From assembly GCA_045651685.1 (NCBI GenBank), contig JAZRSV010000027.1, forward strand, positions 22,888-86,887: a DNA stretch of 64,000 nucleotides. Direction: 5' to 3'. The DNA is from Clostridia bacterium (GTDB taxonomy: Bacteria > Bacillota > Clostridia > Christensenellales > UBA1242). The notes beneath the pieces were generated by a model that saw only the letters and a program-made list of their open reading frames with translations, was not told the DNA's origin and did no database searches. Every line of letters begins with the position of its first letter. Position 1 is the stretch's first letter. The position numbers and the translations under genes were made by a program. Of this stretch, positions 36,026 through 47,568 are shown piece by piece.

Positions 36026-36568
36026 ATGGAGATGGATATTATTTCAAAAGCATTTTTAGGTATATACAGGTACCTAAATGTATTGACAAAATCAATTGAT
36101 AGAGTTGTTAAAATAAAGGGTATTAACTCGTCTAGTTTTAATGATTATTACAAAAACAATACCGAGGATCAAACAGAAGAACTGCTTGCTTTAACTAACA
36201 AAAAAATCACCTTAATTAACATTAAAGTGATTGTTGACAAAACTTTGCTCAAGTTAAAAAGTGAGCAAGCAAGAATATTAACGCTAAAATATATAGACAA
36301 TTTTAGCTCAAAACAAATATGCGAATTAATGTCGCTGCAACCAAGAACTTATTTTAGAAAAGTTAACGCAGCTCTAAATGAGTTTCAGAAGCATCTTTTG
36401 GTATTTTTTAACTCTAACGCTCAAGTTAAGTGCGACATACTAGAGCAGTCTTGGGTAAAAACTTTGCTTAACAACTACACAAAAGATACAAAAATAAATT
36501 GTGAAGTTGATGGTTCTTTTATCTACAAAACTATTATAAAAAGTCTAAAGCGTTCTGTAGCGTGCTAA
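36026..36568 (+). CDS. sigma-70 region-4-like HTH regulator (phage late-activator-like: ArpU/RinA/Xpf style)
   Basis: 180 aa. The segment LKSEQARILTLKYIDNFSSKQICELMSLQPRTYFRKVNAALNEF resembles a sigma region 4 / LuxR-type HTH. RBS GGGGAGGA. It sits upstream of the terminase gene. Confidence 0.5.
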   Translation: MEMDIISKAFLGIYRYLNVLTKSIDRVVKIKGINSSSFNDYYKNNTEDQTEELLALTNKKITLINIKVIVDKTLLKLKSEQARILTLKYIDNFSSKQICELMSLQPRTYFRKVNAALNEFQKHLLVFFNSNAQVKCDILEQSWVKTLLNNYTKDTKINCEVDGSFIYKTIIKSLKRSVAC

Positions 36569-37299
36569 AGTTCATAGTCTTCGTATACATTTTCTTTGCT
36601 AGGTTTTGATTTGCTCTTGGCTATCATACTAGGCTTAAACAACAAGTATACGAGAGCTACAGCAGGCAAACAAACTATTATTATTAGTATTGTCTTAAAG
36701 CTTGTGCTTTGTTTTAGATTTTTGATATATTGACTACTTACATTAACAAATGGGTTGGGTATACTTTGGTACTGTTCGGTATTTGGTGTGATGTTTGACA
36801 ACATGTCACATAGACCTGCATACACATAACCAGTGTATTTTGTATTGTTTTTTGTATAGCATGCATAATACCAAATGTTGCCTCTACCTGATATTAATTC
36901 TTCACCTTTTATTTGTCCGACATATTGTATTTCTTTGGTGGTTGGCAAAGTACAATGTATGGTTGAGTTCTTTTTTGGCTCTAACCTTAATGTTGCGCCA
37001 TCTGTTGCAAACACTCTAAAAGTCGCCATGTTTAGATATGGCTGCGTTGGGGTGTTTTTTGTTGCGACAACTGCATCAGCTTTTACAAAACCTACAAGGC
37101 CTAGATATTCTACTTTATAATAATTGTCTTTGTAGTCTAGCAGTTTTACATAATAACTATTAGGTATCTCAAACACAATGCTTTGGTCGTTAGGGTTAGA
37201 GCAAAAGTATACATTGCTATTAATAGCCTTGGCATAATAACTATGTGGCGTACCTGCCAAATTAAGCATTATTGATACTATCAAACAAAAAATTTTCAT
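36565..37299 (-). CDS. signal peptide + SH3b-like domains + C-terminal TM anchor protein
   Basis: 244 aa; N-terminal hydrophobic leader; SH3b-like YYVKLLDYKDNYYKVEYLGLVGFVKADAV; TM ILIIIVCLPAVALVYLLF near the C-terminus. Confidence 0.55.
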   Translation of the reverse strand: MKIFCLIVSIMLNLAGTPHSYYAKAINSNVYFCSNPNDQSIVFEIPNSYYVKLLDYKDNYYKVEYLGLVGFVKADAVVATKNTPTQPYLNMATFRVFATDGATLRLEPKKNSTIHCTLPTTKEIQYVGQIKGEELISGRGNIWYYACYTKNNTKYTGYVYAGLCDMLSNITPNTEQYQSIPNPFVNVSSQYIKNLKQSTSFKTILIIIVCLPAVALVYLLFKPSMIAKSKSKPSKENVYEDYEL

Positions 37300-37371
37300 A
37301 TTGCACCTGTGTTAATTTTATATATATTTTACCTACAAAAAAATAGAAATTTTGTCTAATAAGGAGTTTTA

Positions 37372-38817
37372 ATGAATGTTGGTATTATTGACAGATTAAA
37401 CAAAATTAATAAAGAATTGTCCAAACGAAAAAATAACAATAAACTAGCTATGTACAACACCCAAGGCAAAGTTCACCAAAAGCAACTAGCCTTTCATAAG
37501 TGTCCTCAAAAAAACAGGTGGGTTTTTGGTGGCAACCGTAGTGGCAAGACAGAGTGTGGTGCAGTAGAAACGGTGTATATGGCAAGAGGTTGTCATCCAT
37601 ATAGGCAAAACAAACAAAACACAGTTGGTTGGGTAGTGTCTTTGTCTACACAGGTGCAAAGAGATGTAGCGCAAAAAAAAGTTTTGTATTATCTTAATCC
37701 AAGTTGGATAGTAGATGTTGTTATGTTAAGTGGAAAAAAGGACAATCCTAGTGGTGGGGTTATAGATTATATACAGATAAAAAACACTTTTGGTGGTGTT
37801 AGTACGATAGGCTTTAAGAGTTGCGATCAGGGTAGAGAAAAGTTTCAAGGCACTTCTCTTGATTATGTCTGGTTTGACGAAGAACCACCACAAGATATAT
37901 ATGACGAGTGCCGCATGAGAGTTTTGGACAAGGGTGGTGATATCTTTGGCACAATGACCCCGCTAAAAGGCCTTACTTGGGTGTATGACGAAATATACAT
38001 GAATTGCCACAATGACCCACAAGTTTGGTCGCAACATATGAATTGGCAAGACAACCCATATCTTGACCAACAACAGGTAAAAATGTTAGAAGAGTCAATG
38101 TCTCATGATCAATTAGAAAGTCGAAAATATGGCAAATTTGTAGGTGGTGGTGGGCTTGTGTATAATGAGTTTGACCCGAGTGTACATGTTATTGATCCAT
38201 TTGTTGTGCCAGTTGAGTGGTATGACAATATTTCTATTGACCCAGGCTTGCACAATCCACTTGCTTGTCATTGGTATGCTGTTGATTTTGATGGCAATGT
38301 ATATGTTATAGCAGAGCATTTTGATAAGGACAAAGACATTATTTATCACTCTAATTGTATCAAGCAAATATCCAAACAGCTTAACTGGCATACAAATAGT
38401 ACCGGCATGTATCAAGCACTAATAGACAGTGCTGCAACACAACGCACTTTGGCCTCGACAAAGAGTGTAGCAGAACTATTTTATGACAACGGCATATCTG
38501 TCAATGCAAAGGTAGACAAAGACTTATTTAGCGGCATTTCTAGGGTAAAAAGCTACCTAAAAGATGCCACAGGCAAGGCAAAGCTTTTTATATTTAGAAA
38601 TTGCACCAACCTAATAAGAGAGTTAAAAACATATTATTGGGCGCAAGATGACAGGCCGCAAAAAAAAGACGACCACTGCCTTGACGAATTAAGATACTAT
38701 ATTATGTCAAAACCAACAACAGCAAAAAGCAACCAACCAAAAAGCGCAATACAACTAGACAAAGAAAAACTATACAAAAAACTCAATAATAGCTTTCGAA
38801 GCCCGCACTATTACTAA
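37372..38817 (+). CDS. terL: phage terminase large subunit
   Basis: 481 aa; Walker A GGNRSGKTE; Walker B LDYVWFDEEP; coupling motif GTMTP; C-terminal nuclease-like region (IDSAA, DDHCLDELRY); RBS AAGGAG. Confidence 0.85.
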   Translation: MNVGIIDRLNKINKELSKRKNNNKLAMYNTQGKVHQKQLAFHKCPQKNRWVFGGNRSGKTECGAVETVYMARGCHPYRQNKQNTVGWVVSLSTQVQRDVAQKKVLYYLNPSWIVDVVMLSGKKDNPSGGVIDYIQIKNTFGGVSTIGFKSCDQGREKFQGTSLDYVWFDEEPPQDIYDECRMRVLDKGGDIFGTMTPLKGLTWVYDEIYMNCHNDPQVWSQHMNWQDNPYLDQQQVKMLEESMSHDQLESRKYGKFVGGGGLVYNEFDPSVHVIDPFVVPVEWYDNISIDPGLHNPLACHWYAVDFDGNVYVIAEHFDKDKDIIYHSNCIKQISKQLNWHTNSTGMYQALIDSAATQRTLASTKSVAELFYDNGISVNAKVDKDLFSGISRVKSYLKDATGKAKLFIFRNCTNLIRELKTYYWAQDDRPQKKDDHCLDELRYYIMSKPTTAKSNQPKSAIQLDKEKLYKKLNNSFRSPHYY

Positions 38818-46848: not shown

Positions 46849-47081
46849 TAATTTATTCAAAACCAGCACACTATCTAGCTCAAAAAAATTTGTTCTACCA
46901 GCAGCAAAAGCAAAAGAGAGGGGGAAAGTTTATGTTTAATTATAAATTTGATGATGTATTTACCGAAAAAACAGTTGAACTTGTTGAAGAAAAAGTTGTG
47001 AAAGATCAGCCGTTAGAGCCTATTGTTGATTTGGACCCTAGCAAAAGCGATATTATATGTGGGAAGAAATCTTTAGAGTAG
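46845..47081 (+). CDS. small hypothetical protein (alternative start 46932)
   Basis: 78 aa; the ATGA overlap with the upstream stop suggests coupling; an internal ATG at 46932 has a better RBS (GAGGGGGAAAG). Confidence 0.35.
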   Translation: MIIYSKPAHYLAQKNLFYQQQKQKRGGKFMFNYKFDDVFTEKTVELVEEKVVKDQPLEPIVDLDPSKSDIICGKKSLE

Positions 47082-47272
47082 CTTTGTCTAATGGTTTGTG
47101 GGCGGCGTTGTTTGTAGGATTGTTAGTATTTCAATTAAAAGACAGTGCAAAAAGAGAAAAGAAATATCAAGATACTATTTCGAAACTAAACGAGCATCTC
47201 GATGCTGTAAGCGACATCAAAGAAGAGATAAAAGAAATACGCGCTTGCTTGGTAAAAGGAGATAAAAAATGA
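47057..47272 (+). CDS. BhlA/UviB-family holin-like protein
   Basis: 71 aa; single N-terminal TM. The pattern NGLWAALFVGLLVFQLKDSAKREKKY closely parallels my recollection of the BhlA family (..G.FA.LF..LL...K.S.ERE.K), followed by a coiled C-terminus. Confidence 0.7.
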   Translation: MWEEIFRVALSNGLWAALFVGLLVFQLKDSAKREKKYQDTISKLNEHLDAVSDIKEEIKEIRACLVKGDKK

Positions 47273-47568
47273 AAAGTATAAAAGATTATGCTGTACTGCT
47301 AGGTGTTATTAGTGCCGTTATAGCGCTTGTCCAAATAATAGCTAGTGTATTTAACTTTGGCCTTGATATTAACCTAATTGTAGAAACAATATCTATAATA
47401 TTGGCAGTATTAGTGACTGTTGGTGTTATTAACAAAAAAGACAGTACTAACAAATCTATCAAAGAACTGCAAGAAGACATAAAAAGTGATCTTATAAACT
47501 CAACAAATCAAAAAGATGAAGATGTAGACAAAACAACTTTTTTAGATCAAAACAACAAAGACAACTAA
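47269..47568 (+). CDS. two-TM holin-like small membrane protein
   Basis: 99 aa; two hydrophobic helices then a highly charged C-terminal tail (class II holin topology); ATGA overlap with the BhlA-like gene; RBS AAAAGGAG. Confidence 0.5.
   Translation: MKSIKDYAVLLGVISAVIALVQIIASVFNFGLDINLIVETISIILAVLVTVGVINKKDSTNKSIKELQEDIKSDLINSTNQKDEDVDKTTFLDQNNKDN

Follow-up and report, generated by a model that had tools for sequence, protein, structure and literature searches.

To our knowledge, few lineages of gene transfer agents (GTAs) have a known genetic basis, and until 2026 none of these came from gut commensals and none was podovirus-like. FpGTA of Faecalibacterium prausnitzii has since been described as a ~10.5-kb operon encoding a terminase small subunit (TerS) without an obvious DNA-binding domain, a terminase large subunit (TerL), portal, scaffold and capsid proteins, conserved hypothetical proteins and proteins of short-tailed-phage type; it is near-ubiquitous in its host genus, its particles of ~40 nm with ~8.5-9 kb of host DNA were demonstrated experimentally, including by proteomics, and a second operon encodes a baseplate, a fibre, a receptor-binding protein, a holin and an endolysin (PMC12946183). 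The same study reports that host fragments of 4.1 and 6.3 kb are packaged in GTA-like fashion in two Christensenellaceae genomes, for which it identified no gene cluster. Here we describe a cassette of 11.5 kb, from the start of an activator gene to the end of a second holin gene, in a 64-kb stretch of the genome of a Clostridia bacterium (contig JAZRSV010000027.1, positions 22,888 to 86,887; the window, below). We regard it as probably a domesticated podovirus-derived GTA-like particle system (a "viriform"), chromosomally fixed in a broad clade of uncultured gut Clostridia, and it is an obvious candidate for the locus behind the packaging seen in Christensenellaceae. No prior description of the cassette was found in the literature searched. 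An initial annotation of this DNA knew of no characterised equivalent, a statement overtaken by the 2026 description of FpGTA in Faecalibacterium (PMC12946183).

Composition of the cassette

Peptides of the capsid protein were scanned against one genome per species (185,579 species), and capsid relatives were found in 423 stretches of this collection. The locus counts given below rest on the best 80 of these 423, which are 60-72% identical; L-numbers (L001, L002 and so on) designate the loci of relatives that were compared with the window cassette. Open reading frames (ORFs) were scanned for domains over ~20-56 kb of the window. The cassette comprises the following features (lengths in amino acids, aa).

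36026-36568, + strand: sigma-region-4 / ArpU-RinA-like late-gene activator, 180 aa (Sigma70_r4_2 5.5e-7, DUF1492 7.3e-5)
37372-38817, + strand: TerL (Terminase_6N 1.4e-13, phrog_2 2.5e-30)
38851-39183, + strand: truncated TerS-like protein (mini-TerS), 110 aa (PHROG TerS matches)
39176-39343, + strand: four-cysteine zinc ribbon with a basic PKSPxN tail, 55 aa (alignment; weak zinc-finger Pfam matches)
39345-41246, + strand: portal protein, P22/SU10 type (P22_portal 2.4e-24, SU10_portal 1.2e-6, phrog_156 1.6e-41)
41236-41871, + strand: scaffolding protein, assigned by position and coiled-coil character
41883-43049, + strand: major capsid protein, HK97 fold (NCBIfam NF033394 capsid_maj_Podo 8.6e-85, phrog_14242 4.6e-58)
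43063-43086, + strand: hairpin with a 10-bp stem and T-run, 3' of the capsid gene, placed like the P22 post-coat stem-loop
43114-43479, + strand: conserved 121-aa protein (74 loci)
43494-44063, + strand: conserved 189-aa protein (76 loci)
44064-45551, + strand: predicted podovirus tail nozzle/hub protein, beta-propeller, 495 aa (AlphaFold2 model, Foldseek, profile)
45538-46848, + strand: Cys- and beta-rich, fast-evolving 436-aa protein, candidate distal tail protein
46845-47081, + strand: 78-aa ORF, seen only in L001, no family match
47057-47272, + strand: BhlA-family holin-like protein (Holin_BhlA 2.7e-16, phrog_2429 1.5e-13; 28 loci)
47269-47568, + strand: second holin (Phage_holin_1 6.3e-4, phrog_297 7.9e-7)
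47573-47607, strand not assigned: A/T-flanked 16-bp hairpin terminator, closing the operon

The activator also matches the phage transcriptional activator families phrog_36 (2.7e-11) and phrog_248 (1.5e-7), with weak ECF-sigma and ArpU matches. Across the TerL proteins of 26 relatives, neither the Walker A (GGNRSGKTE) and Walker B (LDxVWFDEEP) motifs nor the Asp residues of the nuclease vary. The mini-TerS family, present in 71 loci, has 28 of 30 members matching the TerS family phrog_309 (best 7.6e-7) and half of the 30 matching a second one, phrog_23444 (15 members); because its proteins are ~100 aa long and the matches cover only profile positions ~194-239 of 319, mini-TerS seems to lack the usual N-terminal DNA-binding part. 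The 55-aa zinc-ribbon protein (67 loci) is possibly a packaging accessory. The scaffold gene, found in 78 loci, lies between the portal and capsid genes as in P22, and its product gave weak matches of coiled-coil type only. For the capsid protein, the sequence profile had no match in the PDB and the match came from fold search only: its AlphaFold2 model, of moderate confidence (pLDDT 71.6), matches HK97-fold capsids exclusively (Foldseek), among them those of Mic1, SU10, A-1(L), Pa223, lambda and HK97.

The model of the 495-aa protein, built from 59 homologues, is of higher quality (pLDDT 88.7, pTM 0.89). Its best Foldseek matches in the PDB are all podovirus nozzle or hub proteins (the Pa223 tail at 2.8e-20 and TM 0.73, VP1, SU10), and further matches include P22 gp10 (TM 0.61), Sf6 gp8 and T7 gp12; the family profile matches the SU10 tail chain 7z47_G at 3.5e-4 among PDB sequences, as well as phrog_3287, a virion structural protein. 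By its predicted fold, the 495-aa protein is a tail nozzle of the P22 gp10 / T7 gp12 type. The 189-aa protein is, by position only, a probable portal-to-nozzle adaptor, since its gene directly precedes the nozzle gene as gp4 precedes gp10 in P22; its family matches no PDB or PHROG entry, and hhalign against P22 gp4 was negative. Position likewise makes the 121-aa protein a candidate head-completion or connector protein; profile searches gave its family no PDB or PHROG assignment.

The slot beyond the nozzle is variable. In 66 of the 80 other loci it holds a helical DUF7934 protein of ~300 aa, whose family matched nothing in the PDB or PHROGs and was negative in hhalign against P22 gp26, whereas the window's subclade has the 436-aa protein, which is unrelated to DUF7934. 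This protein has a single relative among 5.8 billion proteins, a fragment 92% identical to it, and no relative in the PDB; with its equivalent in L003, similarity is limited to the C-terminal ~90 aa (E 6e-7). Its position makes it a candidate distal tail protein (plug, fibre or receptor-binding), and its fast evolution and exchange between lineages hint at a specificity determinant. One subclade (L020:2432-5779, L023, L029:4627-6891, L072:3536-5953) has in addition a gene for a protein of 750-1,120 aa between TerL and mini-TerS; weak InlB B-repeat and M26-N-terminal-like matches suggest that it could be a lineage-specific fibre or adhesin.

Among the ORFs at 30.5-49 kb, no match was found to an integrase, recombinase, replication protein, CI/Cro repressor, tape measure, tube, sheath or peptidoglycan hydrolase, and the wider scan revealed neither an endolysin nor a fibre locus. 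There is no tRNA and no att-like direct repeat at the cassette, and no Rfam family inside it. The cassette is therefore probably unable to propagate itself, since no integration, replication or lysogeny module was found.

Much of this inventory had been anticipated by the initial annotation. Every ORF that it listed between 36026 and 47568 was recovered at the same position, and profile or fold matches now support its sigma-region-4-like regulator (Sigma70_r4_2, DUF1492, phrog_36), its TerL (Terminase_6N, phrog_2, motifs intact), its portal-sized 633-aa protein (a P22-type portal by P22_portal and phrog_156), its capsid-like protein (model matches to HK97-fold capsids only) and its two holins (BhlA at 2.7e-16, the second by phrog_297 at 7.9e-7). 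The strong terminator that it placed after the capsid gene corresponds to the hairpin at 43063-43086, and the integrase, lysogeny switch, replication, tape-measure and lysin genes that it had noted as absent gave no match in the profile scans of the 30.5-49 kb ORFs either. Two of its readings have to be revised: the 110-aa member of its "two small ORFs" after TerL is a TerS derivative, and the cassette that it described as having no tail encodes, in its 495-aa ORFan, a podovirus tail nozzle according to the model and family profile.

The layout is that of the late genes of P22, SU10 and Pa223, namely terminase, portal, scaffold, coat, stem-loop, small ORF, adaptor-sized gene, nozzle and distal tail gene; the portal is of P22 type, the nozzle fold is that of gp10 and of its Pa223, VP1 and SU10 equivalents, and the capsid model resembles those of SU10 and Pa223. 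In contrast to P22, the cassette is chromosomally fixed and has no ejection, tailspike, lysogeny, replication or lysin genes; its TerS is truncated and placed after TerL, the 189-aa protein has no similarity to gp4, and DUF7934 has none to gp26. As far as genes alone can tell, the system resembles FpGTA in belonging to a gut Gram-positive anaerobe and in combining holin-based lysis with a packaging and head operon on the ~10-kb scale, in which TerS seems to be without its DNA-binding part and some proteins are of short-tailed-phage type. However, the FpGTA capsid (RCH50849.1) is annotated as N4-gp56, whereas the only NCBIfam match of the cassette capsid (E <= 0.01) is NF033394 capsid_maj_Podo; the host orders differ; and the cassette holins lie inside the main block, while that of FpGTA is in the second operon. 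Because capsid family, host order and holin placement differ, we read the cassette as the product of a separate domestication, analogous to FpGTA and outside its family, a distinction made by annotation and description rather than by sequence alignment.

Two better-known elements share part of this design. RcGTA (Rhodogtaviriformidae) is also a phage-derived cluster of head, packaging and tail genes without integration or replication genes, inherited vertically and co-diverging with its hosts across a large clade, with a TerS lacking a specific DNA-binding domain and with a cluster that is split in some genomes. A partial precedent for the wiring of the cassette is offered by GafA, which activates RcGTA directly and has a sigma-factor-like domain, and by the influence of LexA on RcGTA production (PMC6363796). 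RcGTA is nevertheless siphovirus-like, with a tail tube and tape measure, whereas the cassette is podovirus-like and the proteins are unrelated or similar at fold level only; furthermore, RcGTA is controlled by CtrA and quorum sensing, whereas the cassette has a LexA box directly upstream of its activator. PBSX of Bacillus subtilis is, similarly, a chromosomal element of a Firmicute that is SOS-inducible, has a sigma-like late activator and is released by a holin, and it packages host DNA; it differs in having a contractile myovirus tail that acts as a tailocin and its own lysin, while the cassette has no sheath, tube or lysin. A PBSX-like defective myophage was considered and rejected, in view of the missing sheath, tube and tape measure and of a TerL score of 37.8 bits against the PBSX-family terminase model TIGR01547, whose cut-off is 105.

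One chromosomal site and its inheritance

Where named, the best 80 capsid carriers are metagenome-assembled genomes (MAGs) of uncultured gut Clostridia, and several of the records are labelled Christensenella, Christensenellaceae, Christensenellales or Candidatus Fimimonas. Fimimonas belongs to the Christensenellales family CAG-314 of GTDB and has genomes of ~1.4 Mb (PMC8035907). Three carrier MAGs (L011, L018, L050) are labelled "Corallococcus sp.", and NCBI puts Candidatus Fimimonas in Myxococcaceae, against its assignment to Christensenellales in the paper that described it; these labels are probably a taxonomic error. The capsid family as a whole comprises >6,300 protein clusters at 90% identity. 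No phage record with near-identical DNA was found, and the closest phage capsid proteins are 24-28% identical. Nearly every match in IMG/VR is a copy of this host cassette on a short contig with the same host flanks; two others (L127, L128) are capsid relatives 31-34% identical that share no other cassette gene.

The conserved order of genes is as follows: deacetylase, SSB, a ~600-aa minus-strand surface protein, activator, minus-strand SH3 protein, TerL, mini-TerS, zinc ribbon, portal, scaffold, capsid, the 121-aa and 189-aa proteins, nozzle, distal protein, (holins), membrane protein, rnj, methyltransferase and trhP. The rnj gene lies 6.3-10.8 kb past the capsid start in 30 of the 50 loci with enough downstream DNA, and ssb lies upstream of the cassette in 22 of 46; the slot is kept even where RNase J is only ~47% identical to that of the window. 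Other lineages have kept the upstream anchor and not the downstream one. In L010:2374-4530 and L048:4068-5816, genes for Tex and aspartyl-tRNA synthetase stand directly before a block running from mini-TerS to the holins; with the structural block beside Tex or the synthetase and no TerL within 10 kb, the cluster is split across loci in those lineages.

In composition, the cassette cannot be told from its host: GC content is 0.350 against 0.352, relative synonymous codon usage correlates at r = 0.968 (0.957 between two halves of the host sequence), and tetranucleotide frequencies correlate at r = 0.989 (0.981-0.988 for host chunks). Core genes that are not cut by a contig end are of full length (capsid in 80 of 80 loci, portal in 73 of 73, TerL in 51 of 51, activator in 48 of 48); the only split one is the nozzle gene of L050. 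About 12 distant loci have a shorter (~400-520 aa), unsplit nozzle variant, and for each of four other genes a single short copy was seen. Ratios of nonsynonymous to synonymous substitution (dN/dS; Nei-Gojobori medians over 34 independent pairs) are given below; they are approximate because dS is near saturation (about 1-1.7).

TerL: 0.064
capsid: 0.068
portal: 0.072
nozzle (495 aa): 0.14
mini-TerS: 0.15
189-aa protein: 0.15
121-aa protein: 0.17
activator: 0.20
scaffold: 0.26
trhP (host control): 0.076
ssb (host control): 0.08
rnj (host control): 0.13

When only pairs with dS < 1 are considered, the capsid value is 0.055 (n=14). Mantel correlations with the rnj identity matrix are 0.91 for capsid, 0.90 for TerL and 0.95 for portal (p = 0.001), as tight as for the control pair rnj-trhP (0.95); mean pairwise identity is 0.73 for the capsid against 0.60 for RNase J. 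These comparisons indicate that the cassette is vertically inherited and co-diverges with its host at one site.

One relative lacks it. Metagenomes were scanned with the SSB protein, giving 80 loci, of which 32 had >=7.5 kb of sequence downstream of ssb; the cassette is present in two of these, other genes lie downstream in 29, and one, L136, is an empty site. On its 899-kb contig, L136 retains full flank synteny from murG to sigK, including the ~600-aa surface, SH3 and membrane proteins, and has neither the activator nor any gene from TerL to the holins. No cassette remnants are visible in the two remaining gaps, of 126 and 316 bp. In the gap at L136:14242-14560 there is a tiny ORF (ending ...LTERQILEKLKLIEKEEEDETETEE) with a terminator behind it; the ORF has a vague likeness to the motif at the C-terminus of mini-TerS proteins and might be a cassette relic. 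In a neighbour-joining rnj tree, L136 is sister to the window's clade, and the other deep clade carries the cassette at the site, so that loss in the L136 lineage, nested as it is among carriers, is the most parsimonious explanation. The cassette is thus widespread and old, but neither universal nor immovable.

Set beside these results, the proposal of the initial annotation that this is a host-retained, domesticated particle-forming unit and no standard prophage is strongly supported: the cassette occupies the same site in deeply diverged genomes, its dN/dS values (0.06-0.26) are far below 1, there are no frameshifts and essentially no disrupted core genes, and the capsid has an HK97 fold. 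The housekeeping flanks that it named are recognised by profiles on either side of the block, and its impression by eye of host-like codon style and AT-richness agrees with the GC, codon and tetranucleotide figures. It had expected an empty site to go with a plain prophage remnant. Such a site exists, cleanly, in L136; the remnant reading does not follow from it, as the nested position of L136 points to loss.

Putative SOS control of the activator

A 375-bp region upstream of the activator gene holds a conserved block shared by L002, L003 and L004, with the following sites.

35824-35839, + strand: palindrome TGACAAACTGCTGTCA, in the conserved block
35859-35870, + strand: LexA/Cheo-type box GAACAAATGTTT, one mismatch from GAAC-N4-GTTC
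35964-35991, + strand: putative SigA-type promoter, TTGACT, 16-nt spacer, TTTAAT

The TTGACT element and ATATGTCA just 5' of it are invariant in five aligned relatives. The pattern GAAC-N4-GTT[CT], counted within 400 bp upstream of a gene, occurs upstream of the activator in 42 of 47 genome loci, where 0.033 would be expected per 400 bp; these boxes are mostly perfect palindromes and often lie 19-90 bp ahead of the start codon. For 14 other gene families, the corresponding upstream stretches gave 0-4 matches each. In independent sets, the box precedes the activator in 8 of 9 metagenome loci and in 3 of 9 more divergent IMG/VR loci. Judging from this distribution, the activator is presumably repressed by LexA and the operon fired by the SOS response. 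Three further sites of the form GAAC-N4-GTTT on the minus strand of the window (39-50, 19756-19767, 57956-57967) could be other SOS boxes, and they occur at chance frequency. Another motif recurs across lineages 10-30 nt before the ribosome-binding site of TerL (~37350-37360 in the window), and in many loci also ~110 bp upstream of TerL; its sequence is ATTTTGCCGAGTTATGT in the distant loci, while the close loci show ATTTTGTC or TATGTC, and it is a candidate target of the sigma-like activator. Conserved motifs upstream of TerL with the form TTTTG(C/T)C are candidates for the target promoter as well.

Readings of the cassette and its neighbourhood

If the cassette is a GTA-like system, it may work as follows. 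Host LexA would occupy the Cheo-type box upstream of the sigma-region-4 activator gene until the DNA is damaged, or until de-repression occurs stochastically in a few cells, and the activator can switch on the operon from TerL to the holins. Portal, scaffold and the HK97-fold capsid protein, recognised by homology, would then form procapsids, and TerL, with its catalytic motifs intact, would package DNA by headfuls, aided by the N-terminally reduced TerS derivative and the zinc-ribbon protein; the cargo would presumably be host DNA. The 189-aa probable adaptor and the nozzle, with its recognisable fold, would close the portal as a short tail, the fast-evolving 436-aa protein would serve as plug or receptor binder, and BhlA and the second holin would lyse the producer cell together with a lysin or autolysin encoded elsewhere.

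Kogay et al. 2022 set out a six-point definition of GTAs (PMC9662315). For three of its points, we find proteins of caudoviricete derivation (TerL, TerS-like, portal, HK97-fold capsid, nozzle), read from genes alone; full endogenization, seen in the host flanks and composition, the lack of integrase, replication genes and att sites, and the split loci; and vertical co-diversification, seen in the shared slot, the Mantel r of 0.90-0.95 against rnj and a single nested loss, by distance trees. The other three points, namely random host cargo, a head too small for the element's own genome (the cassette spans 11.5 kb) and delivery of the DNA to other cells, are predictions for the cassette; for the cargo, the 4.1- and 6.3-kb packaging in Christensenellaceae gives an indirect hint. 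That particle formation, cargo and DNA delivery are predicted from genes is one of several points that weigh against a GTA-like system. Searches of the cassette and its surroundings brought up no endolysin, no clear tail fibre and no clear ejection protein; the roles of the 121-, 189-, 436- and 78-aa proteins come from position alone; and the BhlA family, annotated in PHROGs as bacteriocin-related also, would suit a killing particle equally well. Within the window alone the LexA pattern is not enriched (4 found, 3.55 expected), and the window's own box, one mismatch from the palindrome, is not significant by itself. The nozzle has a dN/dS of 0.45-0.86 in the two closest pairs, and the near-saturated dS limits the other ratios. 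Finally, 29 of the 32 ssb-anchored metagenome loci carry other genes downstream, so that the cassette is neither universal nor always at this place; L136 lacks it cleanly; and its loss is read from neighbour-joining trees that are distance-based and midpoint-rooted.

A more specific version of the GTA-like reading, which we put forward tentatively, is that of an ancient, independent podovirus domestication across an order-level clade of gut Clostridia (Christensenellales and relatives), wired to the SOS response through LexA and a sigma-like activator, and constituting the cluster behind the 4-6 kb packaging of Christensenellaceae. If true, this would be a new, independently exapted GTA family, with a capsid family unlike that of FpGTA. 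It would span hundreds of uncultured species, including some whose genomes measure ~1.4 Mb, and genes would move among uncultured gut anaerobes with small genomes by this route to a major extent. It would offer a simple regulatory wiring, from LexA box to sigma-like activator to late operon, and a concrete candidate locus for the published packaging. Such elements, now mis-scored as viral fragments in metagenomes, could also be picked out there by the conserved core (TerL, mini-TerS, zinc ribbon, portal, scaffold, capsid, 121-aa and 189-aa proteins, nozzle and distal protein) as a marker.

The same domesticated particle might instead be a PBSX-like killing device of bacteriocin type, or a device for SOS-triggered altruistic lysis and DNA release, with the packaged DNA incidental and not delivered; this we judge unlikely, though it accommodates several of the observations. 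PBSX-type elements and tailocins are under SOS control, as the LexA box would place the cassette, and the filing of BhlA-family proteins under bacteriocin production or immunity in PHROGs, the lack of recognised ejection proteins and a fast-evolving distal tail protein swapped between lineages, as strain targeting would predict, all fit. The authors of the FpGTA study voice the same caveat for their own system (PMC12946183). Yet purifying selection within the cassette is strongest on the TerL motifs, the portal and the TerS derivative, which is hard to explain if packaging is irrelevant. The tail is another difficulty, as we know of no contractile killing mechanism for a podovirus nozzle.

Explanations that keep the element mobile or dead fare worse. 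A capsid-forming satellite, like the capsid-forming phage-inducible chromosomal islands (cf-PICIs), or another helper-dependent element that happens to be stable at its site, is very improbable: the ~11-kb size and the content of terminase, portal, scaffold, capsid and late activator do resemble such satellites, the capsid of the cf-PICI EcCI2 is one Foldseek match among many HK97 folds, and IMG/VR flags some loci as viral, but the cassette has its own tail nozzle and no integrase, excisionase, primase or replicase and no att repeats, it shares one slot and co-diverges with housekeeping genes over roughly 50% protein divergence, its composition is fully that of the host, and the IMG/VR contigs carry the same host flanks. 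The cf-PICI class proper was rejected on the missing integrase, primase and att repeats and on the presence of the nozzle. That the cassette is an inert prophage remnant, so far undecayed, can be given scarcely any credence. The lack of modules for autonomous life and the one clean empty site would agree with it; capsid genes intact in 80 of 80 loci, dN/dS of 0.06-0.26, a capsid more conserved than RNase J, retention in ~1.4-Mb genomes and the nesting of the empty-site genome between cassette-bearing clades do not. A decaying remnant is contradicted by the selection, intactness and co-divergence data. Hardly any more plausible is the view that these are the late genes of a functional temperate podovirus, with the early ones situated elsewhere or overlooked: housekeeping genes abut the cassette on both sides in many species, inheritance is by vertical co-divergence, and no phage record shares its DNA, the closest phage capsids being 24-28% identical, even though the late operon looks complete, is collinear with that of P22 and has SOS-type control.

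Two neighbouring genes belong to the conserved surroundings of the cassette.

36565-37299, - strand: SH3 surface protein with signal peptide, SH3 domains and C-terminal membrane anchor (SH3_3 2.2e-8)
47742-48686: polytopic membrane protein, 314 aa, true start at 47742, own promoter-like site, retained in the cassette-less L136

The SH3 gene, found in 49 loci, lies inside the span of the block; because it is kept in L136, it is best treated as a host gene, and the same holds for the ~600-aa gene and the 314-aa membrane protein, which are also present there. The surface proteins at 33884-35650 (-) and 36565-37299 (-) have a common plan, with a signal peptide, a beta-propeller and/or SH3 domains and a C-terminal anchor; their genes flank that of the activator, are conserved with the site and persist in L136. 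It is conceivable that they act as receptor or immunity factor for the particle, a candidate role. Between the cassette and rnj, relatives have two families of polytopic membrane proteins (47742-48686; e.g. L032:14455-15276) with a common N-terminal ...MFRN... motif and no Pfam match, the second of which takes the place of the holins in the Fimimonas-like clade. In distant loci, the position ahead of rnj that the holins would have is taken by a gene of ~273-316 aa; it was considered as a lysin and rejected, its product being a polytopic membrane protein.

Further out, profile searches identify MurG, a GyrB/GyrA-type pair, a PdaB-like deacetylase and a two-OB-fold SSB upstream, and RNase J, a methyltransferase, a TrhP-like U32 protein and SigK downstream. 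The GyrA/ParC-type ORF at 25594-28848 (+) is 1084 aa long and family models match only from residue ~284, so that it has either an internal true start or an unusual N-terminal extension. Between ssb and the cassette, the window and L002 alone have a gene (30545-33769, -) for a 1074-aa protein with 13 DUF4116 repeats (8.7e-98), which also matches phrog_31839 (4.3e-69), a phage family of unknown function; other relatives are without it. A class A bacterial RNase P RNA lies at 54383-54719 (+; 289.6 bits). The SigK gene at 52627-53346 (+; NF004471, 8.2e-86) is intact, without an intervening element, and together with the PdaB-like deacetylase it suggests a spore-forming host.

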